From contig JAHWJU010000002.1 of NCBI GenBank assembly GCA_019348255.1, positions 7,132-71,131 of the forward strand: a stretch of 64,000 nt of DNA, given 5' to 3'. Both the position numbers and the translations under genes were made by a program. The stretch is from Actinomycetota bacterium (GTDB lineage Bacteria > Actinomycetota > Acidimicrobiia > Acidimicrobiales > CADCTF01). Positions 10,783 through 57,349 of the stretch are shown here, in pieces; positions within the stretch are counted from its first letter, which is position 1; each line of letters begins with the position of its first letter. Below the pieces are notes generated by a model. It searched no databases. It was not told the DNA's origin and worked only from the letters and a program-made list of their open reading frames with translations.

Positions 10783-11724
10783 GTGCGTCTCCGCGCCGCC
10801 ACCCGCGGCAGCGCCCTGGCCCGTTGGCAGACCGACCACGTGGCCGCGCTCCTCCGCCAGGCGCACGGCCCCGACCTCGACATCGAGGTCGTCGTCGTGC
10901 AGACGGAGGGAGACCGGCGCCACGACGTCCCCATCGAGGCACTGGGGGGTCGGGGGGTCTTCGTCAAGGAGGTGCAGGCGGCGGTGCTCGAAGGCCACGC
11001 CGACATCGCCGTCCACTCCGCCAAGGACCTGCCGGCGGCACCGTCCCTGCAGCCCCCGGGGCTGGTGCTCGCGTGCGTGCCCGAGCGGGGCGACCCCCGG
11101 GACGCGCTGGTCACCGCGGCCGGACCGCCCGCGGCCGCAACCACCTCCGGGCGCAGCATCATCGAATCCCTGCCGGTGGCCGCGCTGGTGGCCACCGGCT
11201 CGGTCCGCCGGCGGGCCCAGCTCGCCAACCTTCGGCCCGACCTGTGCTTCAGCGGCCTCCGGGGCAACATCGAGACCCGCCTCGATCGCGCCCGCGGCTA
11301 CGACGCGGTGGTGATCGCCGCCGCCGCCCTCGACCGGCTGGGCCGGTTCGACGCGCCCGCCACCGTCGTAGACCCCCCGCTGCTGTTGCCCCAGGTCGGC
11401 CAGGGAGCGCTAGCCGTCGAGTGCCGCGCCGACGACGCCTGGGTGCAGGTGGCACTGAGGGCGGTGGAGCACGCCGCCAGTCGAGCGGCGGTCGACGCCG
11501 AGCGGGCCTTCCTCGCCCACCTGGGCGGTGGCTGCGACCTTCCCGTGGGTGCGCTGGCGAGCGTCGACCCCGCCGGCCAGATCCACCTCGAGGGGCTCCT
11601 CGCCAGCTACGACGGCCGCATCGTGCTGCGCCGGTCGCTCGCCGGCCCTGATCCCGCCGCCCTCGGCGCCGAATTGGCCACGGAACTTCTCGACCGGGCC
11701 GGCGGCCGCGCCCTGCTGGCCTGA
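10783..11724 (+). CDS. hemC: Hydroxymethylbilane synthase (porphobilinogen deaminase)
   Basis: RAATRGSALARWQT...GGRGVFVKEVQ...DIAVHSAKDLP...GNIETRL...GGGCDLPVGA motifs. Confidence 0.9.
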   Translation: MRLRAATRGSALARWQTDHVAALLRQAHGPDLDIEVVVVQTEGDRRHDVPIEALGGRGVFVKEVQAAVLEGHADIAVHSAKDLPAAPSLQPPGLVLACVPERGDPRDALVTAAGPPAAATTSGRSIIESLPVAALVATGSVRRRAQLANLRPDLCFSGLRGNIETRLDRARGYDAVVIAAAALDRLGRFDAPATVVDPPLLLPQVGQGALAVECRADDAWVQVALRAVEHAASRAAVDAERAFLAHLGGGCDLPVGALASVDPAGQIHLEGLLASYDGRIVLRRSLAGPDPAALGAELATELLDRAGGRALLA

Positions 11725-11767
11725 CGGAGAGGTTTCGCCGGGCGGACCGGGACGCCAGACTGGGCCG

Positions 11768-13198
11768 GTGACCGTCTACCTCGTCGGCGCCGGCCCCGGC
11801 GACCCGGGACTGTTGACGCTGCGGGGTGCCGAGGTGCTGAGGCGGGCCGAGGTGGTGGTGTACGACCGCCTCTCGGTGGCCGCCCTCGTCGACATGGCGC
11901 CGGCCACCGCGCAGCGCATCAGCGTGGGCAAGACGCCGAGGGGACCGAGCACGCCCCAGGACGAGATCAACGCGCTGCTGGTGGAGCACGGCCGTGCCGG
12001 GCGCGAGGTGGTACGGCTGAAGGGCGGCGATCCCTTCGTCTTCGCCCGGGGCGGAGAGGAGGCGGCGGCGCTGGCCGCCGCCGGCGTCACCCACGAGATC
12101 GTCCCCGGCGTCACCTCGGCCGTGGCCGCGCCGGCCTACGCCGGCGTGCCCCTGACCCACCGCGGCCTCTCCACCTCCTTCACCGTGGTCACTGGTCACG
12201 AGGACCCGTGGGCGGCCACCGAGACCGACTGGGAGGCGGTTGCCCGGGTCGGGGGAACGACGGTGGTTCTCATGGGTGTGGCCACCCGCGCCGACATCGC
12301 CCGCCGCCTGATGCAGGCCGGCCGTCCTGCCGACACTCCCGTGGTGGCGGTGCAGTGGGGGACGACGCCCAGGCAGCGGACGATGCGCACGACGCTGGCC
12401 GGCCTGGGTGCGGCACCTCTCTCGGCCCCGGCCACCATCGTCATCGGTGCCGTGGCCGGCCTGGATCTGGCTTGGTTCGAGCGCCGGCCGCTGTTCGGCC
12501 GCCGCGTGGTGGTGACGCGGGCGCGGGAACAGGCGTCTGAGCTGCGGGCGCGTCTGGAGGAGCTGGGGGCCGAGGTGGTGGAGGTGCCGACCATCGCCAT
12601 CCGTCCCGCAGAGGTCGACCTGGCCGGCTACGTGCAGGGCGCCGACTGGGTGGTGCTGACGTCGGCCAACGCCGTGGCCCAGTTGTGCAGCCAGCTGCGC
12701 GACGCCAGATCGCTGGGCACGGCCAAGGTCGCCGCCGTCGGTCCGGGCACGGCCGAGGCGCTGCGGGTGTTCGGCGTGCGAGCCGACCTGGTGCCGGAGC
12801 GGACGGTGGCCGAGGGGCTGGTCGATGTCTTCCCCCACGGCCCGGGCCGCGTCTTCCTTCCACAGGCCGCCGGCGCCCGCCCGGTTGTGGCTGAGGGGCT
12901 GGCGGCCAAGGGCTGGACCGTCGACGCGGTCACCGCCTATTCCGCGGTAGGCGTAGCCGTGAGCGAAGCGCAGCGGGCTGCGGCCCGGGGAGCGGATGCC
13001 ATCGCGTTCACGGCCTCGTCCACCGTCACCAACTACCTGGGCTCGGCCGACCCTGCCGACGTGCCCGGCGTCGTGGTCTGCATCGGGCCCGTTACCGCCG
13101 AGACTGCCGGCCGCCTCGGGCTCGAGGTCACAGCTGTGGCCGAGCCGCACACCCTCGAAGGTCTGGTCGCCGCGCTGCAGCGGGCCCTCACCCCTTGA
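11768..13198 (+). CDS. Fused uroporphyrinogen-III C-methyltransferase / uroporphyrinogen-III synthase
   Basis: The N-terminal half has SUMT motifs ([36 protein letters not shown]). The C-terminal half ([14 protein letters not shown]...SANAV...) is HemD-like. GTG 11768. Confidence 0.85.
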
Positions 13199-26080: not shown

Positions 26081-26632
26081 GTGAGCGACGAAGCCGAGAC
26101 GCCGACCGAGGCCACCGCGGCGCCCGAACCCGAGACCCTTCACGGCTGCCCCGTGACCTGGTCGGCCGGCCAGCAGGTTCTCCACGTGCCCCGGGAGCGC
26201 TACAGCGAGGTGATGCTGGCGCTGGCCGGAGAAGGCTTCGATCTCTGCTCCGACCTGTGCGCCGTCGACTACGCCGGGTCGTCCAGCCGGTCGCTCCCCG
26301 ACGGCATCTCCGCCGAGCGCTTCGAGGTGGTGGTGAACCTCACCTCCATGCGCCACCGCCGGCGGGTGCGGGTACGGGTGCAGGTGCCGGATGCAGATCC
26401 GGTCGTTCCCTCGCTGTTTGCGGTGTGGCCCGGCACCGAGGCGATGGAGCGCGAGGCCTGGGACATGCTCGGCGTGGCCTTCGATGGCCATCCCGACCTC
26501 ACCCGGATCCTGATGCCCGACGACTGGGAGGGCCACCCGCTCCGAAAGGACTACCCGGTGGGGCGGGTGCCGGTGCAGTTCAAGGCGACGGCTCGAGCCG
26601 CCGCCGACAGGTCCGGGACCAAGGGAGCATGA
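26081..26632 (+). CDS. nuoC: NADH-quinone oxidoreductase subunit C
   Basis: EREAWDMLGVAFDGHPDLTRILMPDDWEGHPLRKDYP signature. Confidence 0.9.
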   Translation: MSDEAETPTEATAAPEPETLHGCPVTWSAGQQVLHVPRERYSEVMLALAGEGFDLCSDLCAVDYAGSSSRSLPDGISAERFEVVVNLTSMRHRRRVRVRVQVPDADPVVPSLFAVWPGTEAMEREAWDMLGVAFDGHPDLTRILMPDDWEGHPLRKDYPVGRVPVQFKATARAAADRSGTKGA

Positions 26633-27960
26633 GGAGCCGGACGGCTTCAGCCGAGACGTCCGAGGGCCGCCAGGAGATGGCGCCGCGGGGGGCGACCGAG
26701 CGGGCCGAGTTGCTGCGCGAGGAGGGTGCGGTCCTCCGCCTTCCCGAGGGCCCGACGTTGTCGCCACAGGACGTGGCCATCGAAGTGGCCGGCGAGGGCG
26801 AGACCATGATCATCAACATGGGCCCGCAGCACCCGAGCACCCATGGCGTCTTGCGCGTGATGATGGAGCTCGACGGGGAGACGGTCGTCCGCTCCAAGCC
26901 GGTGATCGGCTACCTCCACACGGGCATGGAGAAGACGGCGGAGGACCTCATGTACATCCAGGGGTCCACCAACGTGACCCGGATGGACTACCTCGCCAAC
27001 TTCTTCAACGAGAACGTCTACTCGATGGCGGTGGAGCAACTGCTCGGCATCGAGGTGCCGCCCCGGGCGACGTGGATCCGGATGCTGCTCTGCGAGCTCA
27101 ACCGCATGTCCTCGCACCTGTTGTTCATGGCCACCAACGGCATGGACGTCGGGGCCCTCTCGATGATGATCTACGGCTGGCGGGAGCGCGAGCTCGTGCT
27201 GGCATTCTTCGAGAAGGTGACGGGGTTGCGGATGAACCACAACTTCATCCGTCCCGGTGGGGTGGCGGCCGACCTGCCGGCAGGTTGGCGGGACGACGTC
27301 AAGCAGATCTGCAACCTCATCGAGCCGAGGCTCGACGAGTACGACGAGCTGCTGACCGGCCAGCCGATCTTCCAGGAGCGGACCCAGGGGGTCGGGGTGC
27401 TGACTCCGGAACAGGCCGTGGCGCTGTCGGCCACGGGGCCCATCCTGCGCTCGACCGGGGTCGAGTGGGACCTGCGGCGGGACATGCCTTACCAGTACTA
27501 CGACCAGCTCGAATTCGACGTGATCGTGGGTCAGTACGGCGACGCCTTCGATCGCTACGCCATCCGCCTCAACGAGATCCGCGAGTCGATCAAGCTCGTC
27601 CGCCAGATCATCGAGCTCGTGCCCGGCGGTGACTACCGGACGCAGGACAAGAAGGTGACGCCGCCGCCCAGGGCCCGCATCGACGAGTCGATGGAAGCAT
27701 TGATCCACCACTTCAAGCTCTTCACGGAGGGGTTCCGGGTGCCCGCGGGAGAGGTGTACGTGCCCATCGAGTCCCCCCGCGGGGAGCTGGGCTGCTACCT
27801 GGTCTCGGACGGTTCGGCCAAGCCCTTCCGCCTCCACATCCGGGCACCGTCCTTCGCCAACCTCCAGACGCTGCCCGTTATGTTGCGCGGCGGCCTCATC
27901 GCCGACGCAGTCGCCATCATCTCCTCCATCGACCCCGTCATGGGAGACGTCGACCGATGA
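26629..27960 (+). CDS. nuoD: NADH-quinone oxidoreductase subunit D
   Basis: NMGPQHPSTHGVLR, IGYLHTGMEK and C-terminal DPVMGDVDR; ATGA overlap with nuoC. Confidence 0.9.
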   Translation: MRSRTASAETSEGRQEMAPRGATERAELLREEGAVLRLPEGPTLSPQDVAIEVAGEGETMIINMGPQHPSTHGVLRVMMELDGETVVRSKPVIGYLHTGMEKTAEDLMYIQGSTNVTRMDYLANFFNENVYSMAVEQLLGIEVPPRATWIRMLLCELNRMSSHLLFMATNGMDVGALSMMIYGWRERELVLAFFEKVTGLRMNHNFIRPGGVAADLPAGWRDDVKQICNLIEPRLDEYDELLTGQPIFQERTQGVGVLTPEQAVALSATGPILRSTGVEWDLRRDMPYQYYDQLEFDVIVGQYGDAFDRYAIRLNEIRESIKLVRQIIELVPGGDYRTQDKKVTPPPRARIDESMEALIHHFKLFTEGFRVPAGEVYVPIESPRGELGCYLVSDGSAKPFRLHIRAPSFANLQTLPVMLRGGLIADAVAIISSIDPVMGDVDR

Positions 27961-28078
27961 GGCCTTCGTCCTCACTCGCTTCGCTCCGTTCGGACGAGTT
28001 CGGTCGTGCCGGCCTTCGGCCGGCGCTGTCTTTCGCTCCGTCGACCGGCGGAGCCGGATCGACGGAGGGGGGCTGCTG
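27961..28078 (+). repeat. Structured intercistronic repeat, copy A (nuoD-nuoE junction)
   Basis: Shares a ~75-nt core with 48259-48382 and 56050-56197. Hairpins at 28008-28024 and 28036-28067. Bridged by a 40-codon ORF (27957-28079) docked ATGA/TGATG to nuoD and nuoE. Confidence 0.75.
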
Positions 28079-28822
28079 ATGGCGGGGCTGAGCAAGGAGA
28101 ACCTGGAGCGCGCTCGCCAGACGATCGCGCTGTATCCGCAGGCCCGCTCCGCGATGTTGCCGCTGTTGCACATCGTGCAGGAGCAGGAGGGCTACCTGAC
28201 GGAGGAGGGGATGGCGCAGGTGGCCGACTTGCTCGACCTGAGCCCGGCTGAGGTCTATGGGACGGCCACCTTCTACGACATGCTCTTCACCCACCCGGTG
28301 GGGACGTACCTGCTCTCCGTCTGCACCAACATCGCCTGCCTTCTGAACGGCGGCTACGAGCTGCTCGAGCACGCCGAGAAGCGCCTGGGGGTGAAGGCCG
28401 GCGGCACCACCGCCGATGGCCGCTTCACCCTGGAGGAGGTGGAGTGCATCGGCCTGTGCGGCAACGCCCCCTGCCTCACCGCCAACTGGCGGTTCTTCGG
28501 TGACCTTACCGCCGACAGCTTCGACACCCTCGTGGACGACCTCGGCGCCGGCCGCCTGAGCGAGACGGTGCCACGCCACGGCACTCTCTGCCGCGTTCGC
28601 CGCTCCGTGGGCCTGACGGCCGCCGGCCCCAAGGGTGAGCAGGCGAAGCCCCCGCCGGAAGAGGCGGCCGCTCCCGCCTCCGAGGCACCCCAGTCCGTCG
28701 CGCCCGGCACCCACGACCAGCCGCCGAGCCGCGAGGGCGCGGAGAAGGCCGCCAAGCAGGCCTCGGAGGTTCCGAAGACGGGCGACACCGCGTCCGACCA
28801 GGGGAGCGGGAGGCGAAAGTAG
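28079..28822 (+). CDS. nuoE: NADH-quinone oxidoreductase subunit E
   Basis: SAMLPLLHIVQEQEGY, GTATFYDMLF, VCTNIAC and ECIGLCGNAPC ([2Fe-2S] ligands); Pro/Ala/Glu-rich C-terminal tail. Confidence 0.9.
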   Translation: MAGLSKENLERARQTIALYPQARSAMLPLLHIVQEQEGYLTEEGMAQVADLLDLSPAEVYGTATFYDMLFTHPVGTYLLSVCTNIACLLNGGYELLEHAEKRLGVKAGGTTADGRFTLEEVECIGLCGNAPCLTANWRFFGDLTADSFDTLVDDLGAGRLSETVPRHGTLCRVRRSVGLTAAGPKGEQAKPPPEEAAAPASEAPQSVAPGTHDQPPSREGAEKAAKQASEVPKTGDTASDQGSGRRK

Positions 28823-45327: not shown

Positions 45328-45693
45328 ATGTCGGACTTCCTTCGGAGCTACCTCACGGTGGCGATCCTCGGAGGGGCCGCTTTCCTGCTCGTAGGGGGCT
45401 TGCTCGGCCTCGGCAGGTTGATCAGGCCCCGCCGACCACAACCCCAGAAATACATCCCTTACGAAAGCGGCGTGGATCCTGTGGGCACCGGGTGGTCCCA
45501 GAGCCAGATCCGCTATTACGTCTTCGCTCTCCTGTTCGTCTTGTTCGACGTGGAAGCGGTCTTCATCTTTCCGTGGGCGGTCCGTCTCGAGGAGCTGGCC
45601 CTCTTCGGGCTCGTCGAGATGATCGTGTTCATCGTCATCCTCGCCCTCGGCCTCGTCTACGCATGGCGCAAAGGGGTGCTCCGGTGGGTCTAG
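45328..45693 (+). CDS. nuoA2: NADH-quinone oxidoreductase subunit A, second copy
   Basis: IPYESGV...[16 protein letters not shown] signature; 3 TM segments; 121 aa. Confidence 0.85.
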
Positions 45694-46199
45694 TGGAGTC
45701 GGGGAAGGTGCCCAAGCCGCTGTCGTGGTTGCTCAACTACAGCCGCAAGTACTCGCTGTGGGTCTACCAGTGGGGCCTCGCGTGTTGTGCCATCGAGATG
45801 GGCGCGGCCTTCGGTTCACCCCGCTACGACGTGATGCGTCTGGGCGTCATCCCCCTGCCCGCCTCCGCCCGCCAGGCTGACCTGGTGGTCGTCTCGGGCA
45901 CTGTGACCGACAAGATGGCCCCTCCCATCCGCAGGCTCTGGGAGCAGATGCCGGACCCGAAGTACGTGATCTCGATGGGGAGCTGCGCGAACTGCGGCGG
46001 CCCCTATTGGGACAGCTACTCGGTCACCAAGGGCATCGACCAGATCATCCCCGTCGACGTCTACGTCCCAGGATGCCCACCCCGGCCCGAGGCTCTGCTC
46101 GAGGGCATCGTCTTGCTCCAGCAGCGCATCCAGCACGAGGACATGGCCGACCGGTGGCGGGGAGAGCCGCTGGTGGTCGGAGGCGGCCCCATCTCATGA
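45693..46199 (+). CDS. nuoB2: NADH-quinone oxidoreductase subunit B, second copy
   Basis: [23 protein letters not shown] and PGCPPRPE; GTG 45693 overlaps the nuoA2 TAG by 1 nt. Confidence 0.85.
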
Positions 46200-47089
46200 G
46201 CGAGACTGGGCCCGAGCGGCCCTCCCAGCCGGGTGACGGCCCGCCCGAACGGATGGACCTCCACGAAACCTCGACCCCGGAGGGTCAGCGGCCAGCCGAA
46301 GAGTCCGGTTCCCCGCAGAGCGTGGGCGGAGAGCCGGCCCCGGAGGCGTCCCCGGCCCAACCGCCCGCCGACGCCACCGCCACTCCGTCTCCGGCAGTGA
46401 CCGCCTCTGGCGACCAGTCCCAGCCCGAGCCCGACCCCCCGCCCGCCCCGGAACCGGACCCAATCCGCGACCAGCTCGTGGAGCGTCTGCGGGCGGTCCT
46501 GGGGGAGGCGGTCGTGGACTCCGTGGTGCAGAAGGGCGACTTGTGGGTGCGGGTGCACCGGGACGCCTGGCGCCGGACGGCGCAACTCCTGAAAGACAGC
46601 GGTTTCACGTACTTCTGCTTCTTGTCGGGCATCGACTGGCTCCCTAATCCGGAGCTGTCGAACCGCTACGAGCAGGTCTTCACCGCGGAAGGGGACGGGG
46701 CCGACCCTGAGGAGACCACGCCCTCCACCATCGAGACGGGGCTGGCGGGAGGCGAAACCCGGTTCCAGGTCTTTGCCCGCCTCTACGACGTGCAGCGAAA
46801 GTTCGGCGTCACCATCAAGGCGGACCTCGACGACGAGGCTCCGAGCGTGGAGAGCATCTCGTCCGTCTACCGGGGCGCCGATTGGCACGAGCGGGAGACA
46901 TGGGAGATGTTCGGGTTCGACTTCGTCGGTCACCCGGGGCTGCGTCACCTCTACCTGCCCACCGGCTTCGAGGGGTTCCCTCTGCGCAAGGACTTCCCAC
47001 TGCTTGCACGGGTGGTGAAGCCGTGGCCGGGCCTGGTGGACAAGGAGCCCGTGCCGGGCGAAGACGAAGAGGAGGTGCCTGCCACGTGA
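46196..47089 (+). CDS. nuoC2: NADH-quinone oxidoreductase subunit C, second copy, with ~95-aa Pro/Glu/Ala-rich N-terminal extension
   Basis: C-terminal [37 protein letters not shown] signature; ATGA overlap with nuoB2. Confidence 0.85.
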
Positions 47090-48258
47090 CCATCACCCAG
47101 CATCAACAGCAGGCCTACATCGCCGGCCAGGCCGCCGAGGCCCGCCTCCGCTTCGAGCTCGAGACAGAGGGAATGACCCTCAACATCGGGCCTCAGCATC
47201 CCGCCACGCACGGGACGCTCCGCATCGTGGTCCGCCTCGACGGCGAGCAGGTCGTGTGGGCCGATCCCGTCTGCGGCTACATGCACCGCGGCTACGAGAA
47301 GCTGTGCGAGGTCCGCAAGTACCAGCAGGTGACCACCCTCATCAACCGGATCGACTGGTTGGGGCACTTCGCCAACGAGGTGCCCTTCATCCTGGCCGTC
47401 GAACAGCTGTACGACGTGGAGGCGCCTCCTCGGGCGCAGTGGATCCGCACGATCTTCTTCGAGATGGCCCGTATGGCCAACCTCGGCTTGTTCCTGGGGG
47501 ACATGGGAGTTCAGCTGGGGGCCATCACTCCGGTGTTCTTCGCCTTCCGCGACCGCGAGCACGTGCTCAACCTCATGGAGGCTGCCACCGGGGGCCGCTT
47601 CCATCCCAACTACGACCGGGTCGGGGGTCTCAAGGAGGATCTGCCCAAGGGTTGGGTGGACGAGTGCAAAGAGGTGATGAAGCGCCAGCGGGAGTTCTGC
47701 GACGAGATGGAGGAGCTCCTGGTCGGAAACGAGATCTTCCAGACCCGCACCCGCGGCATCGGGGTGATCCCCCAACAGATAGGTCTCGACTACGGATTGT
47801 CAGGCGCCAACATCCGCGCCAGCGGCGTCGACTGGGACCTCCGGCGGGACCGGCCCACGCCCTTGGCCTGGAAAGAGGCCGACTGGAAGGTGTGGACCCA
47901 CCCCGACGGCGACTCCTTCGCCCGCTACTGGGTGCGGCTGCAGGAAGTTCGGGAGTCGACCAAGATCGTCGACCAGCTGCTGGAAGGCCTCCCGTCTGGG
48001 CCGGTGATGGCCAAGATGCCGGCCCGCCTCCGGGTGCCCAAGGGAGAGGCCTGGGTCAACACCGAGAACCCGTTGGGGGAGATGGGCTACTACGTCGTCA
48101 GCGACGGTGGCCCCAGCGGGCCCTTCCGCTGCAAGATCCGCTCCGCCAGCTTCAACAACATCTCCATCGTGCCGTGGCTGCTCCGCGGCGTCTACGTTCC
48201 CGACGTCATCACCATTCTCGCCAGCCTCTACTTCATCCTCGGCGACATCGATAGATGA
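47086..48258 (+). CDS. nuoD2: NADH-quinone oxidoreductase subunit D, second copy
   Basis: NIGPQHPATHGTLR, CGYMHRGYEK and C-terminal YFILGDIDR; GTGA overlap with nuoC2. Confidence 0.9.
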   Translation: MTITQHQQQAYIAGQAAEARLRFELETEGMTLNIGPQHPATHGTLRIVVRLDGEQVVWADPVCGYMHRGYEKLCEVRKYQQVTTLINRIDWLGHFANEVPFILAVEQLYDVEAPPRAQWIRTIFFEMARMANLGLFLGDMGVQLGAITPVFFAFRDREHVLNLMEAATGGRFHPNYDRVGGLKEDLPKGWVDECKEVMKRQREFCDEMEELLVGNEIFQTRTRGIGVIPQQIGLDYGLSGANIRASGVDWDLRRDRPTPLAWKEADWKVWTHPDGDSFARYWVRLQEVRESTKIVDQLLEGLPSGPVMAKMPARLRVPKGEAWVNTENPLGEMGYYVVSDGGPSGPFRCKIRSASFNNISIVPWLLRGVYVPDVITILASLYFILGDIDR

Positions 48259-48382
48259 GTTCGCCGTCACTCGCTCGCTGCGCTCGCTCCGTTCCGGCGA
48301 GTTCGTTGTGCCGCCCTTCGGGCGGCGCTGTCTCTGGCTCGATCGACCGGCAGAGCCGGATCGATCGAGGGGAGGGGGGTTG
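48259..48382 (+). repeat. Structured intercistronic repeat, copy B (nuoD2-nuoH2 junction)
   Basis: Same core as 27961-28078. Hairpins at 48310-48326 and 48338-48369. Bridged by a 42-codon ORF (48255-48383) docked ATGA/TGATG. Confidence 0.75.
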
Positions 48383-49402
48383 ATGCTGGCGCTTTCTTAT
48401 CCGGTGGAGACGGCCATCAAGATGGGGGCGGTGCTGGCCGTCATCCCGGTGGGGGCACTGATCCTCGTCTACGTCTTCCTGTTCAAGATGATGAGCCACA
48501 TGCAGAGCCGGCTGGGTCCGATGGAGGCGGGCTTCCACGGGACGCTGCAGCCGGTGGTGGAGGGTGTGAAGTTCCTCCAGAAGGAGGACCTCATCCCGAA
48601 CGGAGCGGACCGGCGGATCTTCGCACTGGCCCCGCTCGTGGTCATCATCGCCACGTTCCTCATCTACGCGGTGATCCCGGCCGGGCCCGACCTCGTCATC
48701 TCCAACCTCGACGTGGGCGTCTTCTATGCCCTGGCCGTTGGCTCGCTGTCCGTACTCGGCGTCCTCATGGCCGGTTGGGCGTCGGCCAACAAGTACTCGC
48801 TGCTCGGCTCGCTACGGGCTGCGGGGCAGCTGATCGCCTACGAGCTCCCGCTGGTGCTGGCCGTCGTGGGGGTTGTGATCCAGGCCGGGACGATGAGCCT
48901 GTCCGGCATCGTCGAGGCCCAGGCCGAAGGAGAGATCTTCGGCTTCGGCGGCATCGGCAACCCTTACATCCTCACTCAGTTCATCGGCTTCGCGCTGTTC
49001 GTGGTCTCCTCGCAGGCCGAGCTGACCCAGGCGCCCTTCGACATGCCGATCGCCGAGTCCGAGCTCGTCGCCGGCTACATGACCGAGTACAGCGGGTTCC
49101 GGTTCCTGTTCTTCTTCATCGGTGAGTTCGCCACTGCCTTCGCCCTTTCGGCCATCGCGGCCACCCTCTTCCTCGGCGGCTGGTACTTCCCCGGCCTCGG
49201 GACCGACGGCGCCCTCGCCAACCTGGCGGGACCCATCGTGCTCATGGGCAAGATCATGCTGATGGCCTTTTTCATCTTCTGGATGCGCTTCACCTACCCG
49301 CGGCTGCGGGAGGACCAGTTGCAGACCTTCGCCTGGAAGTGGCTGATCCCCATCTCGCTGGTCAACATCGCCGTCACGGGCGTGCTGAAGGTGGCCTTCT
49401 GA
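48383..49402 (+). CDS. nuoH2: NADH-quinone oxidoreductase subunit H, second copy
   Basis: [26 protein letters not shown] and [29 protein letters not shown] 48383 (TTG 48380 is also possible). Confidence 0.85.
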
Positions 49403-49917
49403 TGCCGGAGATCCCCGGGCAGGGCCTGGTCAAGGGTCTGGGTGTGACGCTGCGGACCATGATGCGCCCTGCCGTCACCGTGCAGTACCCCCACGACAAG
49501 GAGGCTCCGCCCACCCGAGCCCGGGGCGTGATCGCACTGCTCGAGGAGAACTGCACCGTCTGCATGCTGTGTGCCCGCGAATGCCCGGACTGGTGCATCT
49601 ACATCGAGGGCCACAACGACAAAGCTCCCCCCCGCCGCGAAGGCGGCAAGCCCCGCACCATCAACATCCTCGACCGCTTCGACATCGACTACGGCCTTTG
49701 CATGTACTGCGGCATCTGCGTCGACGTCTGCCCCTTCGACGCGCTCTTCTGGTCGCCGGAATACGAGTACTCCGAGATCAACATCGCCGACCTGTTGCAC
49801 GACAAGCGCCGGCTGGGCGAGTGGATGGACACCGTGCCCGAACCACCGCCGCTCGAGGCGGGGGCACAGGGCAAGCTCAGGAAGGGCCCCGCCGAGGCGC
49901 GGGCCAAGAGCCGGTAG
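49402..49917 (+). CDS. nuoI2: NADH-quinone oxidoreductase subunit I, second copy
   Basis: [12 protein letters not shown] and [12 protein letters not shown] motifs; TGATG overlap with nuoH2. Confidence 0.9.
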
Positions 49918-49923
49918 CGGCCG

Positions 49924-50415
49924 GTGAGCGGAGCGAACGTCGCCTTCGGGGTTCTTGCCGCGGTCATGGCGGTCTCTGCCATCCGGGTGGTGACGACCAA
50001 GAACGTCGTCCACGCCGCGCTGTACCTCGTCCTGGTGCTCGCCGGAGTGGCCGGGATCTTCATCCTCCTGGCCGCAGAGTTCCTCGCCATCGTGCAGATC
50101 CTCGTCTACATCGGCGCCATCGTCGTGTTGTTCCTCTTCGGCATCATGCTCACCCGGGCGCCGATCGGACGAGCCCCCGATCTCGACAACGACCAGCGTG
50201 CCATCGGGGCCGTCGTGGCCATGTTCCTTTTCGGGGTGCTGGGCTGGATCCTCTATGACGGCTTCGGCGACACCCAGCTGCAGTTGCGCGACGTGGGCCG
50301 AAGCGGAGATGTCGGCGCGTCCATCTTCTCCACCTTCGTCGTCCCCTTCGAGGTCATCTCCGTCCTGCTTCTCGCTGCCCTGGTGGGCGCGGTAGTGATC
50401 GCCAGGAGGGACTGA
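49924..50415 (+). CDS. nuoJ2: NADH-quinone oxidoreductase subunit J, second copy
   Basis: ND6-like (NVVHAALYLV...[20 protein letters not shown]), in the canonical position. Confidence 0.85.
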   Translation: MSGANVAFGVLAAVMAVSAIRVVTTKNVVHAALYLVLVLAGVAGIFILLAAEFLAIVQILVYIGAIVVLFLFGIMLTRAPIGRAPDLDNDQRAIGAVVAMFLFGVLGWILYDGFGDTQLQLRDVGRSGDVGASIFSTFVVPFEVISVLLLAALVGAVVIARRD

Positions 50416-50723
50416 TGTACCTGATGCAGTTCCTGGTTCTGGCCGCCTTCCTGTTCTGCGTCGGCGTCTACGGCGTCCTCGTCCGGAAGAACGCGGTGCT
50501 GGTTCTGATGTCGATCGAGTTGATCCTCAACTCGGTCAACATCAACTTGGTCGCTCTGGGCGTGTACCGGGGCTACGACCAGGCCATCGTCGGCCAGGTC
50601 TTCTCCCTCTTCGTCATCGCTGTTGCCGCCGCCGAGGTGGGCATCGGACTGGCCATCGTGCTGCTCATCTACCGCAACCGCGCCTCCATCGACCTCTCAG
50701 AGGTCGACCTCATGAAGGGTTAG
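50415..50723 (+). CDS. nuoK2: NADH-quinone oxidoreductase subunit K, second copy
   Basis: 102-aa, 3-TM ND4L-like protein (MSIELILNSVNI...AAAEVGIGLAI). Confidence 0.9.
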   Translation: MYLMQFLVLAAFLFCVGVYGVLVRKNAVLVLMSIELILNSVNINLVALGVYRGYDQAIVGQVFSLFVIAVAAAEVGIGLAIVLLIYRNRASIDLSEVDLMKG

Positions 50724-50733
50724 CCGGCGCCGC

Positions 50734-52977
50734 ATGGTGCTTCAGAACATCTGGGTCATCCCGGCCATCACGGCCTCTTCGTTCGTCCTCATCCTGTTGT
50801 TCGGTCGCCGCCTACCCAACAAGGGGGCGGAGTTCGGGCTGATGGCCCTGACCATGACGTTCGCGCTGGCCAGCATCGGTGCGGCGCAGTGGGTGGGTCG
50901 ACCCGCCGACCTGGAGGTCGAGCCTGCGTCGACCATCAAGTCGGCCGAGGCCCACGACGAGGAGGGCGGGGACGAGGACCACGGCAACAAGTCGGACAAG
51001 GGACACGCCGGCGAAGGAGCCAAGGAGCACGCCGGCGAAGGAGCCAAGGAGCACGCGGAGGAGCAAGACGAGGGTGGTCACGGCGCCGAGGGCACCGTGG
51101 CCGAAGCGGGGGAGGGTGACGAGGACCACGGCGGCGGCCACGAGGCCGAGCCGATCCGCCGTCCTGTCGACCGCCGGTGGGCCTGGTTCCAGACCGGCGA
51201 CGTGAAGGTGCAGGCAGGCACCCATGCCGACGGGTTGGCCATGGCCATGCTGTTCGTGGTCAGCCTGATCTCGTTGCTCGTGCACGTCTTTTCGTTCAGC
51301 TACATGCACGGCGACGAGCGGTTCACGCACTACTACGCCGCGCTGTCGCTGTTCACCACCGGGATGTTCGTCCTCGTCACCGCCAGCAACACCTTGCAGG
51401 CCCTGTTCGGCTGGGAGCTCATGGGCCTGTGCTCGTTCATGCTCATCGGCCACTGGTGGGACCGCGACGGCAACAAGAACTCCAGCGCCGCCCTCAAGGC
51501 GTTCTTCACGACCCGCACCGGAGACGTGGGCCTGCTCGTCGGCATCTCCATCCTGTTCTTCGCCGCCGGCCAGACCTTCGACATAGAGACCACCAATCGG
51601 GCCGCGCTGACCGGCCAGATCGGTTCTGGTGTGTTGCTGGCCGCGGCCGCCGCCCTTCTGGTGGCCGTCATCGGTAAGAGCGCGCAGTTCCCCCTGCACA
51701 CGTGGCTGCCCGATGCGATGGCGGGCCCGACCCCGGTGTCCGCCCTCATCCACGCCGCGACCATGGTGGTCGCCGGCGTCTACCTGGTGGCTCGCCTCTA
51801 CGGCGTGTTCTGGGTCGCCTTCGACATCGGCGGCGGCGGCATCAACCCGGTGGCCGTCGTGGGGGCCGTCACCATCCTCATCGCCGCAGCCCTGGCCTTC
51901 GTCCAGGCCGACATCAAGAAGGTGCTCGCCTACTCCACCGTCAGCCAGTTGGGCTTCATGATCATGGCGTTGGGGGTCGGGGCGTGGACGGCCGGCATCT
52001 TCCACCTCTTCACCCACGCCTTCTTCAAGGCCTGCTTGTTCCTCGGCGCCGGCTCGATCAGCCACTCCGGGTCGCACCACTCCTTCGACATGGTCAAGGA
52101 CATGGGGGGCCTCAAGGACAAGATGCCCTGGACCTTCCGCACCTTCTTGGTGGCTACGGCCGCGCTCGCCGGCGTTCCGCCTCTGGCCGGGTTCTGGTCG
52201 AAGGACGAGATCCTCCTGGGCGCCGGGAAGAACGGGTACGGGCTGTTCATGGTGGTGGGTCTGATCGGCGCCTTCATGACGGCGGCCTACATGACCCGAT
52301 GCGTCTATCTCACCTTCTTCGGGGAGCCACGGGGAGCAGCGGCCCACCACCACCCCCACGAATCGCCACCGCTCATCGTCGTTCCCCTGCAGGTCCTGGC
52401 TGTGCTCTCCGTCTTCGCCGGCTTGCTCAACGCCCCGTTCTTCGGCGAGTTGTTCGGGAAGTGGACCTCCAACAGCACCGTGCTCGGCGCCGGCATCGCC
52501 CACCACGAGTTCTCCCTGGTGGCGGCCGCGCTGTCCATCGCCGTCGCCTTCGGCGGCATCGCCACCGGCTACGCCTACTACTGGAAGGGCTTCCGCGTCG
52601 GCAGCCTGCGCCACGACCGGGGGCCCACGGGAATGTTGTACCGGCTCCTCGTGCGCAAGTACTACCTGGACGACCTCTACGAAGGCTTCATCGTCCGCGG
52701 CATCCGGGAACCGGTCGCCCGGGCCGCCTACTGGACGAACCAGAAGGTCATCGACGCCGTGGTGAACGGCGCAGGCATCGCGGCCCGGGGCATCGCCCGG
52801 TTCGTCTACGAGATCATCGACCAGCGTGGAATCGACGCCGCCGTGAACGGAGCGGGCATCGCCTCCTCCGAGACCGGCGGGCTGCTCCGCTACATCCAGA
52901 CTGGCCGCGTCCAGCAGTACGCGGCCCTCATGCTCGGTGCCGCCGGCGTCTTCGCGCTGGCGCTGGCGCTGCTGTAA
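50734..52977 (+). CDS. nuoL2: NADH-quinone oxidoreductase subunit L, second copy, with ~95-aa His/Glu/Gly-rich insertion after TM2
   Basis: ND5 motifs: FGWELMGLCSFMLIGHWW and KSAQFPLHTWLPDAMAGPTPVSALIHAATMV. The insertion at roughly nt 50900-51185 is absent from nuoL. Confidence 0.9.
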   Translation: MVLQNIWVIPAITASSFVLILLFGRRLPNKGAEFGLMALTMTFALASIGAAQWVGRPADLEVEPASTIKSAEAHDEEGGDEDHGNKSDKGHAGEGAKEHAGEGAKEHAEEQDEGGHGAEGTVAEAGEGDEDHGGGHEAEPIRRPVDRRWAWFQTGDVKVQAGTHADGLAMAMLFVVSLISLLVHVFSFSYMHGDERFTHYYAALSLFTTGMFVLVTASNTLQALFGWELMGLCSFMLIGHWWDRDGNKNSSAALKAFFTTRTGDVGLLVGISILFFAAGQTFDIETTNRAALTGQIGSGVLLAAAAALLVAVIGKSAQFPLHTWLPDAMAGPTPVSALIHAATMVVAGVYLVARLYGVFWVAFDIGGGGINPVAVVGAVTILIAAALAFVQADIKKVLAYSTVSQLGFMIMALGVGAWTAGIFHLFTHAFFKACLFLGAGSISHSGSHHSFDMVKDMGGLKDKMPWTFRTFLVATAALAGVPPLAGFWSKDEILLGAGKNGYGLFMVVGLIGAFMTAAYMTRCVYLTFFGEPRGAAAHHHPHESPPLIVVPLQVLAVLSVFAGLLNAPFFGELFGKWTSNSTVLGAGIAHHEFSLVAAALSIAVAFGGIATGYAYYWKGFRVGSLRHDRGPTGMLYRLLVRKYYLDDLYEGFIVRGIREPVARAAYWTNQKVIDAVVNGAGIAARGIARFVYEIIDQRGIDAAVNGAGIASSETGGLLRYIQTGRVQQYAALMLGAAGVFALALALL
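51004..51051 (+). repeat. Perfect 24-bp tandem duplication inside nuoL2
   Basis: CACGCCGGCGAAGGAGCCAAGGAG occurs twice back to back (51004-51027 and 51028-51051), encoding HAGEGAKE x2. A partial third unit (CACGCGGAG) follows. Confidence 0.95.
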
Positions 52978-52985
52978 GGAGATTG

Positions 52986-54527: not shown

Positions 54528-54528
54528 C

Positions 54529-56049
54529 GTGTACGGAGCGATGCTCGCTGCGGCGCAGGCCGCGACGGATTTCGTGACGCCGAAGCTCGACTACGCCGCC
54601 CTGGCCCCCGAGATGATCCTCACCGGTGTCATCGTCGTCGTCCTGCTGCTCGACCTGTTCCTGGACGAGACGCAGAAGTACGTCATCCCGAGCATTGCCG
54701 GCTTCGGGATCCTGACAGCCGCGTTCCCACTCGTGTTCCTGGCCGTGCAGGGCGACGACGTGCGTTCCATGGTGGGCGGCGCCTACGTCTCCGACGACTT
54801 CGCCCTGGTGTTCAAGGCCCTCTTCCTCGGGACCGGCTACGTCGTGCTCCTCATGTCGAACCGGTACATCGACGAGGGTGACTATTACAAGGGCGAGTAC
54901 TACGTGATGCTGCTGTCGTCGCTGCTCGGGATGGTGGTCATGTCCTCCTCGCGCGACCTCATCTCGATCTTCGTGGCACTGGAGCTGCTGTCGATCCCGG
55001 CCTACCTGCTGGCCGGCTGGCGCAAGCGTGACCTCAAGAGCAACGAGGCCTCGCTCAAGTACTACCTGCTCGGCGTGCTGTCCAGCGGGGTGATGCTCTA
55101 CGGCATGTCGCTGATCTTCGGTGCCGCCGGTACCACCGTGCTGGAGGACATCAGCGCCCAGCTCGTATCGGTGCCCCAGCTCGACAAGGTGATTGCGATC
55201 GGCATCTTCTTCGTGGTCGTCGGCTTCGCCTTCAAGGTCTCCGCTGTTCCCTTCCACTTCTGGGCTCCCGACACCTACGAGGGGGCCCCCACCCCGGTGA
55301 CCGCCTTCCTGTCGGTGGCCTCCAAGGCCGCCGGCTTCGTCGCACTGCTGCAGTTGGTGTTCATCGCCTTCCTCTCCCAGGGCGACACGTGGGCACCGCT
55401 TTTCTGGGTGCTGGCCGCGCTCACGATGACCGTGGGAAACCTCGTCGCACTGCGCCAGACCAACATCGTGCGGATGCTCGCCTACTCGTCGGTCGCGCAG
55501 GCTGGCTACATCCTCGTGCCGTTCGCGGTGGCGGGTGACGAGCTGCGAGCGGTGCAGTCGGCCCAGACTGCGGCGATCGTCTATCTGCTCATCTACTCGG
55601 CCATGAACCTGGGGGCCTTCGCGATCGTCCTGGCCGTCGCCCGCAAGACCCGCTCCGGGGAGATATCGAGCTTCGGCGGGCTCTTCCAGTACGCGCCAGG
55701 CCTGACGGTGGTCATGACCGTCTTCCTGGCATCCCTGGCCGGGGTGCCGCCCGCCGGAGGATGGTTCGCCAAGTTCGCCGTCTTCCGCTCCGTACTCGAT
55801 GCCGGCACCGGCTGGGCCGTCGCCCTGGGCGTCATCGCCGCCGTCAACTCCGTGGTGGCCGCCTTCTACTACTTCAACGTGGCCCGCGAGATGTGGATCA
55901 ACCCCGTCCCCGACGAGGACCGCACCCCCATCCGGGTGCCGGCCGCGCTGACCACCGCCCTCGGCCTCACCGTCGCCGTCGTACTGGTGATCGGAGTCTT
56001 CCCGGGCCTCTTCGCCGACCTGGGCAACGCGGCATCGCTTGGGCGATGA
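54529..56049 (+). CDS. nuoN2: NADH-quinone oxidoreductase subunit N, second copy
   Basis: FVALELLSIPAYLL and FKVSAVPFHFWAPDTYEGAPTPVTAFLS. Confidence 0.9.
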   Translation: MYGAMLAAAQAATDFVTPKLDYAALAPEMILTGVIVVVLLLDLFLDETQKYVIPSIAGFGILTAAFPLVFLAVQGDDVRSMVGGAYVSDDFALVFKALFLGTGYVVLLMSNRYIDEGDYYKGEYYVMLLSSLLGMVVMSSSRDLISIFVALELLSIPAYLLAGWRKRDLKSNEASLKYYLLGVLSSGVMLYGMSLIFGAAGTTVLEDISAQLVSVPQLDKVIAIGIFFVVVGFAFKVSAVPFHFWAPDTYEGAPTPVTAFLSVASKAAGFVALLQLVFIAFLSQGDTWAPLFWVLAALTMTVGNLVALRQTNIVRMLAYSSVAQAGYILVPFAVAGDELRAVQSAQTAAIVYLLIYSAMNLGAFAIVLAVARKTRSGEISSFGGLFQYAPGLTVVMTVFLASLAGVPPAGGWFAKFAVFRSVLDAGTGWAVALGVIAAVNSVVAAFYYFNVAREMWINPVPDEDRTPIRVPAALTTALGLTVAVVLVIGVFPGLFADLGNAASLGR

Positions 56050-56197
56050 TCGCCTTCGCAACCGTAGGTTGCTCGGCGAGCTCGTTGTGCCGGCCTTCGG
56101 CCGGCGCTGTCTCTGGCTCAGCCGACCGGCGGAGCCGGATCGGCTGAGGAGCCTGGCGGACGGAGGGGCCGGATCGGCTGAGGGGTAAAGCATCGCC
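56050..56197 (+). repeat. Structured intercistronic repeat, copy C (nuoN2-midA junction) with duplicated 3' arm
   Basis: Core hairpins at 56089-56105 and 56117-56148. The 3'-arm sequence CCGGATCGGCTGAGG recurs at 56135-56149 and 56169-56183. A 33-codon ORF (56046-56147) starts with an ATGA overlap on the nuoN2 stop. Confidence 0.75.
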
Positions 56198-57349
56198 GTG
56201 GGGGCTATGGGTGCCATGGGGGTGGTGCAGGGGCGGGTTCGGCGGTTGGGGCCGATCTCATTCGAGGACTACCTCGACATCGCCCTCTACGAGCCCGAAG
56301 CAGGCTTCTACAGCACGGGCGGCGGCGCCGGCCGCCACGGCGATTTCCTGACCAGCCCAGAGCTGGGGCCGCTTTTCGGGGCGGTGATCGGTCGGGCGCT
56401 CGATGCCTGGTGGTCGGAGCTCGGAGAGCCCGATCCGTTCGTCGTCGTGGAGGCGGCCGCCGGCGAGGGCAGTCTCGCCGCAGCCGTGCTGGCCGCCGCG
56501 CCTCGCTGCGCCCCGGCTCTGCGCTACCTGCTCGTGGAGCGCTCGGAACGCATGCGCCAGCGCCAACCGGCCCGGGTTGCGCTCGAGCCCAGCTCGGTGG
56601 TGCTGGGCCCGCGGGGGGACGAGGGCGAGGACGACGAGGACTCCTCGACAGCGGCCGGCGACGGACCACGGCTGGCCTCGCTGGACGATCTGCCTGCCGC
56701 TCCCTTCAGCGGCGTCGTGCTGGCCAACGAGTTGCTCGACAACCTTCCCTTCACCCTGCTCGAGCGCAGCACCGGCGGCTGGGACGAGGTGCGGGTCGGG
56801 GAATCGACCGGAAGCGGAGGCCTCGTCGAGTTCCTGGCGCCGGCGCCTACGACGCTGGCTTCTCTGGCGGCAGAACTGGCCCCCGACGCCGATCCCGGCG
56901 TCCGCATCCCCGTGCAGCGACGGGCGGCGGAGTGGCTGCGGAAGGTACTGAGGCTGCTTCGGGGGGGCCGGGTGGTGGTCGTCGACTACGTCGCCACCAC
57001 GGCCGAGCTCGCCAGCCGACCGCAGGGGGAGTGGCTTAGGACGTACCGCAGCGGCGGACCCGGGGGGCATCCCCTGGACACCCCTGGGGCCCAGGACATC
57101 ACCTGCGAGGTCTGTGTCGACCAACTGTCGCGGGTGCGGGTGCCGACCTCCAACCGGCCGCAGGCGGAGTTCCTAGTGGCGCATGGGCTGGCGCAGTTGG
57201 TCGACGAGGCGAAGGATGCGTGGCTGCGGGGGGCTGCTGGCGGCGGGCTCGAGGCGCTGCGGGCCAGGAGCCGGATCGACGAAGCCGCCGCCCTCACCGA
57301 TCCCTCCGGGCTCGGTGCCTTCCGGGTGCTGGAGTGGGTGACCGGCTGA
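56198..57349 (+). CDS. MidA/NDUFAF7-family class I SAM-dependent methyltransferase (DUF185 type)
   Basis: ISFEDYLDIALYEPEAGFYS...GRHGDFLTSPELGPLFGAVIG closely parallels the family N-terminal block (GDF.TSPE....FGE..G). It is followed by VVEAAAGEGSLA (SAM motif I) and VLANELLDNLPF. The start could also be ATG 56207 or 56216. Confidence 0.8.
   Translation: MGAMGAMGVVQGRVRRLGPISFEDYLDIALYEPEAGFYSTGGGAGRHGDFLTSPELGPLFGAVIGRALDAWWSELGEPDPFVVVEAAAGEGSLAAAVLAAAPRCAPALRYLLVERSERMRQRQPARVALEPSSVVLGPRGDEGEDDEDSSTAAGDGPRLASLDDLPAAPFSGVVLANELLDNLPFTLLERSTGGWDEVRVGESTGSGGLVEFLAPAPTTLASLAAELAPDADPGVRIPVQRRAAEWLRKVLRLLRGGRVVVVDYVATTAELASRPQGEWLRTYRSGGPGGHPLDTPGAQDITCEVCVDQLSRVRVPTSNRPQAEFLVAHGLAQLVDEAKDAWLRGAAGGGLEALRARSRIDEAAALTDPSGLGAFRVLEWVTG

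Follow-up and report, generated by a model that had tools for sequence, protein, structure and literature searches.

A candidate MIRU-like repeat with phase-conserved bridge reading frames at complex I gene junctions of an uncultured actinobacterium

Dispersed repeats tolerated inside operons by means of an open reading frame (ORF) coupled to both neighbouring genes are, to our knowledge, documented almost solely for the interspersed repetitive units of mycobacteria (MIRUs), and the idea rests mainly on their anatomy. According to the summaries of Supply et al. (1997), MIRUs are repeats of 40-100 bp occupying about 41 loci in M. tuberculosis, often as tandem arrays of variable copy number; they are situated in operon spacers, co-transcribed, represented by both empty and filled sites and accompanied by tetranucleotide direct repeats (PMC12548453, PMC3184786, PMC2734929). 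The ends of the MIRU ORF overlap the adjacent genes, insertion taking place at start codons with coupling at a -4 spacing, and this coupling is thought to allow insertion with little effect on expression (PMC12548453, PMC3184786, PMC2734929). Here we describe a repeat family of comparable architecture, present in three copies in a 64-kb stretch of DNA (69% G+C; "the window" means this whole stretch) from an uncultured actinobacterium, known as a metagenome-assembled genome (MAG). All three copies lie on the + strand, co-oriented with the genes, and occupy the junctions nuoD|nuoE (copy A), nuoD2|nuoH2 (copy B) and nuoN2|methyltransferase (copy C). The survey of copies covered the window and fragments of related genomes. 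With modest confidence, we lean towards regarding the repeat as a MIRU-like inserted element whose in-phase bridge ORF keeps translation continuous across the junction.

Copy A (27961..28078, + strand) comprises a 5' arm of the type designated alpha, extending to position 28005, a core of 62 nt (28006-28067) and an 11-nt tail. It is crossed by a bridge mini-ORF of 40 codons, MRPSSSLASLRSDEFGRAGLRPALSFAPSTGGAGSTEGGC (27957..28079, + strand), whose ATG (27957-27959) overlaps the nuoD stop codon TGA (27958-27960) as ATGA and whose own stop codon TGA (28077-28079) overlaps the nuoE ATG at 28079 as TGATG. Copy B (48259..48382, + strand), with an alpha 5' arm, a core at 48308-48369 and a 13-nt G-rich tail, is docked in the same manner: its mini-ORF of 42 codons (48255..48383, + strand) begins with an ATG at 48255, overlapping the nuoD2 TGA as ATGA, and terminates with a TGA (48381-48383) overlapping the nuoH2 ATG at 48383 as TGATG. 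Copy C (56050..56182, the end being approximate; + strand) has a 5' arm of the beta type, a core at 56087-56148 and a second partial 3' arm at 56169-56182, repeated with a period of 34 nt. Its mini-ORF (56046..56147, + strand) opens with ATGA on the nuoN2 stop and is undocked from the next gene at its 3' end, as the stop codon TGA (56145-56147) falls inside the repeat, within the 3' arm of its last hairpin, H2. The frame of copy C is closed by a stem variant that keeps H2 paired (TCGGCTGAG), and the ATG of this mini-ORF sits within a longer chance ORF of 128 codons (55761-56147). The coordinates and peptides of the three mini-ORFs had been given in an earlier note, made from the letters of the sequence, and all were borne out by the sequence check, together with the start/stop docking at both ends of A and B. 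The same holds for the proposal that the peptide itself is not conserved: the core is read as AGLRPALS in copy A (frame a) and as CRPS(G/A)GAVS in copies B (frame b) and C. A covariance model of the core scored the three copies at 100-103 bits and gave no other credible match in the window. The repeat unit, about 110-120 nt long, is single at each site, and all three copies of the window as well as all orthologous ones are located between co-oriented genes in the orientation of these genes.

Orthologous junctions of relatives (fragments designated L001 onwards) were retrieved through homologues of NuoE and NuoH2. The nuoD|nuoE junction was found filled in L002, with the same length as in the window, in L003 (281 nt start-to-start), and in L006 and L007, the contigs of which start inside the element; the nuoD2|nuoH2 junction was found filled in L001 and the identical L011 (167 nt), in L012 (80 nt, alpha arm only) and in L010, where the contig starts in the tail. 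Empty sites were observed at nuoD|nuoE in L004 (CGG TAATG) and L008/L009 (CGC TAG ATG), at nuoD2|nuoH2 in L015 (CGGTGA overlap) and L013 (CGC TAG ATG), and at nuoN2|Methyltransf_28 in L015 (AGGTGA overlap). Since more distant relatives possess empty sites at all three junctions, the window copies are all insertions at former stop/start overlaps or abutments. Filled sites always carry [C/A]GATGA (with Arg encoded by CGA or AGA), whereas in empty sites the stop (TAA, TAG or TGA) comes after CGG, CGC or AGG. In relatives with spacers of 53, 80, 167 and 281 nt, the ATG is placed on the upstream stop, the frame is open, and the stop lies on or next to the downstream start; the orthologous copies thus possess the open docked frames whose absence the earlier note had named as grounds for abandoning its proposal. 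A docked bridge ORF is present in A, B, L003, L005, L011 and L012, and its 5' half only in copy C. A-type cores (window, L003, L006) have GCCGGCC and CTCCGTCGA in common, and B-type cores (window, L011) share GCCGCCC and CTCGATCGA. As the core variants track the junction and not the genome, the insertions are older than the splits of these species; the type of the 5' arm does not track the junction and has been exchanged.

The distance from the bridge ATG to the downstream start equals 2 mod 3 in all six complete filled junctions (122, 281, 53, 128, 167 and 80 nt), no other phase allowing a bridge ORF to terminate on that start; the stop is positioned at -2 (TGATG) or +1 (ATGA) of it in all six. 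The probability of finding all of them in this phase would be (1/3)^6 = 0.0014 if the six junctions were independent, and about 0.04 on the three within-junction comparisons only, copy A of the window and L003 sharing one insertion, and copy B of the window, L011 and L012 sharing one. At junction A, the 5' arm of 49 or 46 nt (1 mod 3) is followed by the core of 62 nt and by a tail of 11, 173 or, in L006, 59 nt (2 mod 3); at junction B, the respective segments are a 5' arm of 53 or 47 nt (2 mod 3), the core of 62 nt and a tail of 13 or 58 nt (1 mod 3). All differences in length between orthologues, both in the arms and in the tails, are multiples of three, even when the 5' module is swapped between alpha and beta. 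The partial phases of A and B are complementary (1+2+2 and 2+2+1, respectively) and give the same docking total; these complementary routes to docking are the reason why the frame used through the core is not the same in A as in B. The tail of L010 contains a 63-nt (21-codon) tandem duplication, with the ORF ending as GTGA on nuoH2; a period indivisible by three (34 nt) is found in one duplication only, that of the undocked copy C.

Besides the invariant 62-nt core, each copy includes a 5' arm of 41-53 nt and a tail of variable length, and its three hairpins follow in a fixed order: H0, situated in the 5' arm and having two variants, H1 with a T-rich tract, and H2. Two versions of the 5' arm can replace one another: alpha is that of copies A and B, and beta, that of copy C and several relatives, has a hairpin given as GCAAGC/GCTTGC for this version at large and as GCAACC/GGTTGC for copy C. 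H1 is formed by GUGCCGGCC-UUC-GGCCGGCGC (-17.6 kcal/mol) and is separated from H2 by a conserved T-rich linker, GCTGTCTYTSGCTC; H2 consists of 14 bp with one bulged A, its energy ranging from -23 to -25.6 kcal/mol across the copies. In copy A, H1 (28006..28026, + strand; 9 bp, -17.6 kcal/mol) is followed by the T-rich tract TGTCTTTCG and by H2 (28036..28067, + strand; 14 bp, one bulged A, -25.0 kcal/mol), the last 4 nt of which are GGAG; H1 and H2 occupy 48308-48328 and 48338-48369 in copy B, and 56087-56107 and 56117-56148 in copy C. In the seven copies compared, taken from the window and from relatives, standard pairs were found in 161 of 161 cells, four pairs (one in H1 and three in H2) being altered on both sides and none being altered on one side or broken; as a control, sliding of the pairing partners abolished the pairing of H1 and H2. 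On the opposite strand, a conserved U-G pair of H1 would turn into a C-A mismatch, and the transcribed strand is therefore the folding one. A simple scan for intrinsic terminators flagged H1 of copy A and did not flag copy C; 4-5 T within 9 nt follow H1 in every copy. For the initiation region from -15 to +3, an unpaired probability of 0.23-0.31 was predicted. The 8-9 bases with which the coding sequence of the upstream gene ends recur in the 5' arm of H2: GTCGACCG occurs at the nuoD end (27949-27957) and in H2 of copy A (28040-28048), and ATCGACCGG occurs at the ancestral nuoD2 end (about 3841-3849 of L015) and in H2 of copy B (48342-48350), the base that distinguishes A from B matching its own junction in each case. 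GTCGAC and ATCGAT are themselves palindromes. This repetition could reflect the origin of the element, microhomology at insertion or an alternative pairing with the stop/start region.

The junctions retain traces of the sites into which the element was presumably inserted. An 8-nt direct repeat, CCGATGAG, borders both ends of the insert in L005, and the insert of L003 is bordered likewise by the initial 7 nt of this repeat, CCGATGA; only GATG is repeated around the window copies, for which a fixed-length target-site duplication was not established. These flanking repeats give the impression that the insertion duplicated a junction of the ATGA type. A GGGAGA motif is located 10 nt before the ATG at 27957, inside conserved nuoD codons (M-G-D), and is found at the same position before the nuoE start in insert-free relatives; it is likely to be the ancestral ribosome site of nuoE, and the bridge ORF has therefore inherited the region from which the downstream cistron was formerly initiated. 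The bridge ATG and the terminal stop are, at least in part, relics, to which selection appears to have added the phase, the lack of stops and perhaps a G-to-A substitution converting GTGA into ATGA. The 53-nt start-to-start spacer at nuoD|nuoE of L005 (7099-7155), which is flanked by CCGATGAG, lacks H1 and H2 and is crossed by an ORF of 18 codons that has ATGA at each end; this spacer is either a different, unrelated small insert or a decayed remnant, having only TGCCGGCC in common with H1.

Under the MIRU-like interpretation, an element of about 110-120 nt with three hairpins would have landed in, or been copied into, junctions with overlapping or abutting stop and start codons. The old initiation region, namely the G-rich ribosome site within the last codons of the upstream gene together with the start overlapping its stop, would stay on the 5' side and now open the short bridge ORF, and within operons only those versions would persist in which this ORF is in phase and ends on the next start by TGATG or ATGA. 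Ribosomes finishing nuoD or nuoD2 at UGA would use the overlapping AUG for a new start, melt H0, H1 and H2 in the course of translating the spacer, terminate on the start of nuoE or nuoH2 and then re-initiate there. Such continuous translation would prevent occlusion of the ribosome site and premature termination at the terminator-like H1, and it would deny Rho and RNases access to the structured spacer of 120-280 nt. Either of the other two phases would be expected to produce a junk extension of the downstream protein or to send out-of-frame ribosomes across its start. For the operon-distal copy C, the constraint would be absent and the frame accordingly free to close, and the peptide sequence would be irrelevant throughout. 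The anatomy, the empty and filled sites, the constant phase and the covarying hairpins are what this scheme is built upon; translation of the bridge ORF, re-initiation and all the physiological effects we infer from the conservation of the phase in a small sample. The bridge ORF may be said to behave like one further link in the chain of coupled cistrons, since (A/G)TGA and TGATG overlaps are the usual type of junction among the true nuo cistrons of the window.

Several observations weigh against coupling, and some of them agree with the bridge ORF being a historical by-product without a role, composed of the duplicated halves of an ATGA/GTGA junction, a frame open by chance and an inherited or coincidental phase; we consider such an origin rather unlikely. 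Across the spacers of A and B, forward frames 0 and 2 are free of stops and frame 1 contains only the TGA of the upstream gene, so that frame 2, that of the downstream gene, is open too. The six frames of the repeat hold few stops in total, and dinucleotide-shuffled spacers stay open in 0.39-0.97 of trials; for these reasons openness is little evidence, and an open frame by itself is no more than expected by chance at 69% G+C. It is the phase and its conservation in relatives that exceed chance. The junctions are partly shared by descent and not fully independent, which reduces the number of independent phase observations. All the downstream cistrons have G-rich ribosome sites of their own and could on this account initiate independently. 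Copy C keeps its ATGA without 3' docking, so that the ATG on the 5' side may be the mark of an insertion and not a start under selection, and the repeats flanking the inserts of L005 and L003 agree with a duplicated junction. In L012, the true start of nuoH2 may be a GTG 18 nt downstream of the called ATG. Masking of the Shine-Dalgarno sequence by H2, as proposed in the earlier note, stands for copy A, in which the GGAG of GGAGG at 28064-28068, the Shine-Dalgarno of nuoE, is indeed the end of the 3' arm of H2, but not for copy B and the relatives, in which the G-rich site belongs to the tail outside H2; sequestration as a general feature was consequently rejected. What a by-product hardly accounts for is that all six complete junctions are in the docking phase at six different lengths, that their 5' arms and tails vary by multiples of three only, even with exchange of the alpha and beta modules, that A and B arrive at the same total phase by different partial phases, and that the only duplication period that is not a multiple of three occurs in the undocked copy. 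The suggestion of MIRU-like coupling made in the earlier note is thus upheld in part, namely in its architecture, its MIRU analogy and the conserved docking; copy C is undocked at its 3' end, the open frames are trivial, and the function would follow from the phase only.

The hairpins themselves may be the functional part, which in the manner of repetitive extragenic palindromic (REP) sequences would stabilise the mRNA, provide a processing site or form a leaky terminator, with the ORFs being incidental. Such an RNA element would set the levels of nuoA-D versus nuoE-N and of nuoA2-D2 versus nuoH2-N2 and act at the operon end before the methyltransferase gene. It is suggested by the perfect conservation of both stems with compensatory changes, by the energies of H1 and H2, by the T-rich tract after H1 in every copy with the terminator-like flag in A, and by the co-orientation of the copies with transcription, two of the three directly following a nuoD paralogue. 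Taken alone, it seems to us quite improbable, as it leaves unexplained the phase and the multiple-of-three indels outside the hairpins, matches no Rfam family, and implies a mid-operon terminator that would be harmful unless overridden by translation, which requires the bridge ORF. A role of the RNA structure and MIRU-like coupling are compatible and not mutually exclusive. A more far-reaching and still doubtful extension is that we are dealing with an undescribed family of structured elements in Acidimicrobiia that targets stop/start overlaps, survives in essential operons by virtue of a frame-flexible bridge ORF and serves as a ribosome-gated attenuator, read-through of the terminator-like H1 and of H2, which would mask the ribosome site, requiring upstream translation and so tying the synthesis of NuoE-N, NuoH2-N2 and the NDUFAF7-like methyltransferase to completed translation of NuoD, NuoD2 and NuoN2, respectively; this family might be specific to complex I operons. 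Very little speaks for the translation product, be it a functional small protein or an N-terminal extension of NuoE or NuoH2: the frames are open and frame 2 continues into the downstream gene, but the frame in which the core is read is not the same for A and B, orthologous peptides resemble one another neither in length nor in sequence, the N-termini of NuoE and NuoH2 match those of insert-free relatives, and the concatenated six-frame translation of four copies, compared with 5.8 billion proteins, gave no match at E<=1. A functional micropeptide was rejected on the grounds of these differing frames and sequences, and an extension of NuoE was rejected as no ATG, GTG or TTG occurs upstream in the nuoE frame after the previous stop.

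The NuoE encoded in the window has 99% identity with a protein from GCA_019348055.1; the relatives that come next by NuoE and NuoH2 are labelled as Acidimicrobiales or Actinobacteria MAGs. The first complex I operon, at about 25.0-40.6 kb of the window, consists of 14 genes, nuoA-N; the second, at about 45.3-56.0 kb (45328-56049), consists of nuoA2-D2 and nuoH2-N2 and is followed by the Methyltransf_28 gene. All the genes flanking the copies lie on the + strand. In the first operon these are nuoD (26629..27960), encoding the 49-kDa subunit (Pfam PF00346; start taken from the gene calls of L002) and ending with GAC CGA TGA, and nuoE (28079..28822); the gene identities were confirmed by Pfam. 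In the second operon they are nuoD2 (47086..48258; Pfam PF00346), ending with GAT AGA TGA, nuoH2 (48383..49402), with PF00146 homologues, and nuoN2 (54529..56049; Pfam PF00361), ending with GGG CGA TGA. The Methyltransf_28 gene 3' of copy C (56198..57349; PF02636) has an uncertain start, either GTG at 56198 or ATG at 56207 or 56216. In the insert-free L015, its counterpart (11469-12626) overlaps nuoN2 by GTGA, and the gene therefore belongs to the second complex I operon; PF02636 is the family of NDUFAF7, a methyltransferase acting in complex I assembly. The second operon is devoid of nuoE, nuoF and nuoG, nuoD2 directly preceding nuoH2, and copies A and B are both placed at the boundary at which the genes of the NADH-oxidising module are present (operon 1) or absent (operon 2). 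Further downstream in the window, a unit of 126 nt (42 residues; containing NGYWMVAADGGIFAFGDA) is repeated in tandem about four times at 57461-58003, with 68-73% identity among the copies, which lie in the N-terminal half of a gene with C-terminal PG_binding_1 and YkuD (L,D-transpeptidase) domains.

Other intercistronic inserts were met with in the relatives. L013, empty at nuoD2|nuoH2, has inserts of ~100 nt at nuoH2|nuoI2 and nuoJ2|nuoK2 (11033-11133 and 12151-12263), which share a different 37-nt repeat (CGCTC..CTGCTCGCTGGCGCTCCCGACGC), 86% identical, and are each crossed by an ORF starting 1-3 nt past the upstream stop and ending 5-10 nt within the downstream gene; given these two junctions, this lineage may commonly harbour intercistronic inserts spanned by bridge frames. 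Another repeat module, CCTGAGGGACAGGACCCGC, belongs to the nuoD|nuoE insert tail of L003 (4040-4075) and, as a tandem duplicate with a 63-nt period, to the nuoD2|nuoH2 tail of L010 (20-125), and the spacers are mosaics of several repeat modules. Three independent short-read contigs, L006, L007 and L010, begin within the repeat or its tail, and such breaks inside the element, usual where an assembler encounters a multi-copy sequence, hint at multiple copies; the remaining fragment of the bridge frame was called as a gene in L007 and L010 (1-75 and 1-144, respectively).

Searches for the element elsewhere returned few matches. The core covariance model, run on 190 kb of the window and relatives, retrieved the known copies only, a 16.8-bit match at 11293-11356 being dropped as looking by eye like an ordinary coding sequence. 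Rfam gave no match at the gathering threshold over the whole window and, when 27900-28150 was examined at E<=10, no more than two chance matches to microRNAs with 13-17 bits versus thresholds of 72-80. Comparison of the core with 72,556 plasmids by blastn, as well as a scan of viral contigs, yielded no matches. Strict and variable-gap pattern scans of a 185,579-species genome collection also yielded none, and the source and its close relatives are therefore without matching copies in that collection; the sole match of the metagenome scan was the orthologous nuoD2|nuoH2 junction. An inverted-repeat scan of the three window copies, for which H1 is below the seed length, detected the internal arms of H2 and no terminal inverted repeats. 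In the literature search, no paper linking Acidimicrobiia with such repeats was found.

If the coupling is real, the repeat would represent a second, apparently independent family of this kind, in another actinobacterial class. The principle itself is not new, MIRU-type coupling being already known; what goes beyond the MIRU literature surveyed is that orthologous junctions of six lengths keep the docking phase while the frame of the core differs by site. Phase conservation of this sort would be direct evolutionary evidence that continuity of translation is preserved, and not a peptide, and it suggests a general rule for the survival of insertions in tightly coupled operons. It also bears on gene calling in high-G+C metagenome bins, and the structured spacers with their bridge ORFs offer compact natural parts for testing termination-reinitiation against stable RNA structure.

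Of the described systems, engineered bicistronic designs and natural leader ORFs, which "deliver" ribosomes to a coupled gene (PMC12548453), are similar in terms of the presumed mechanism. As in these designs, a short ORF of irrelevant sequence ends on a gene start, and ribosomes would remove structure and re-initiate; unlike them, the short ORF described here is coupled at its 5' side to the upstream cistron as well and resides within a dispersed repeat. Miniature inverted-repeat transposable elements (MITEs), such as Correia, RUP and Nezha, are small non-autonomous insertions with stable stem-loops which sometimes fuse frames to neighbouring genes. Small size, empty and filled sites and stable stem-loops are common to them and our element; unlike MITEs, the three window copies displayed no terminal inverted repeats when scanned, whereby a MITE bounded by such repeats was rejected, and clear flanking repeats occur only in L003 and L005, where they resemble a duplicated junction rather than a fixed-length target duplication. 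The proteobacterial REP sequences, bacterial interspersed mosaic elements (BIMEs) and REPINs are short G+C-rich imperfect palindromes of transcribed operon spacers, which stabilise the upstream mRNA or attenuate transcription. With REP/BIME sequences our element shares stable G+C-rich stem-loops in transcribed extragenic DNA (-17.6 to -25.6 kcal/mol, 100% paired in seven copies), and H2 resembles a REPIN-like doublet of inverted arms; unlike REPs, it has three distinct hairpins in a fixed order, and we know of no report of REPs carrying ORFs docked to both neighbours.

The closest resemblance is to MIRUs. Their location in spacers between co-oriented operon genes of a high-G+C actinobacterium, the presumed co-transcription with these genes, the related genomes with empty and filled sites, the insertion at start codons or stop/start overlaps, the internal ORF overlapping both the upstream stop and the downstream start (in A, B and the relatives) and the G+C-rich internal inverted repeats are all found in the present family. 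It differs in its host, an Acidimicrobiales-like MAG and not Mycobacterium, in its unit of about 110-120 nt versus 40-100, which is single instead of forming a variable tandem array (the only tandem traces being the partial duplication of the 3' arm in copy C and the 63-nt tail duplication in L010), in the dominance of two very stable covarying hairpins, H1 and H2, and in its two interchangeable 5' modules. Compared through the descriptions of MIRUs and not by sequence, the element, while not a demonstrable member of that family, appears to work like a MIRU.

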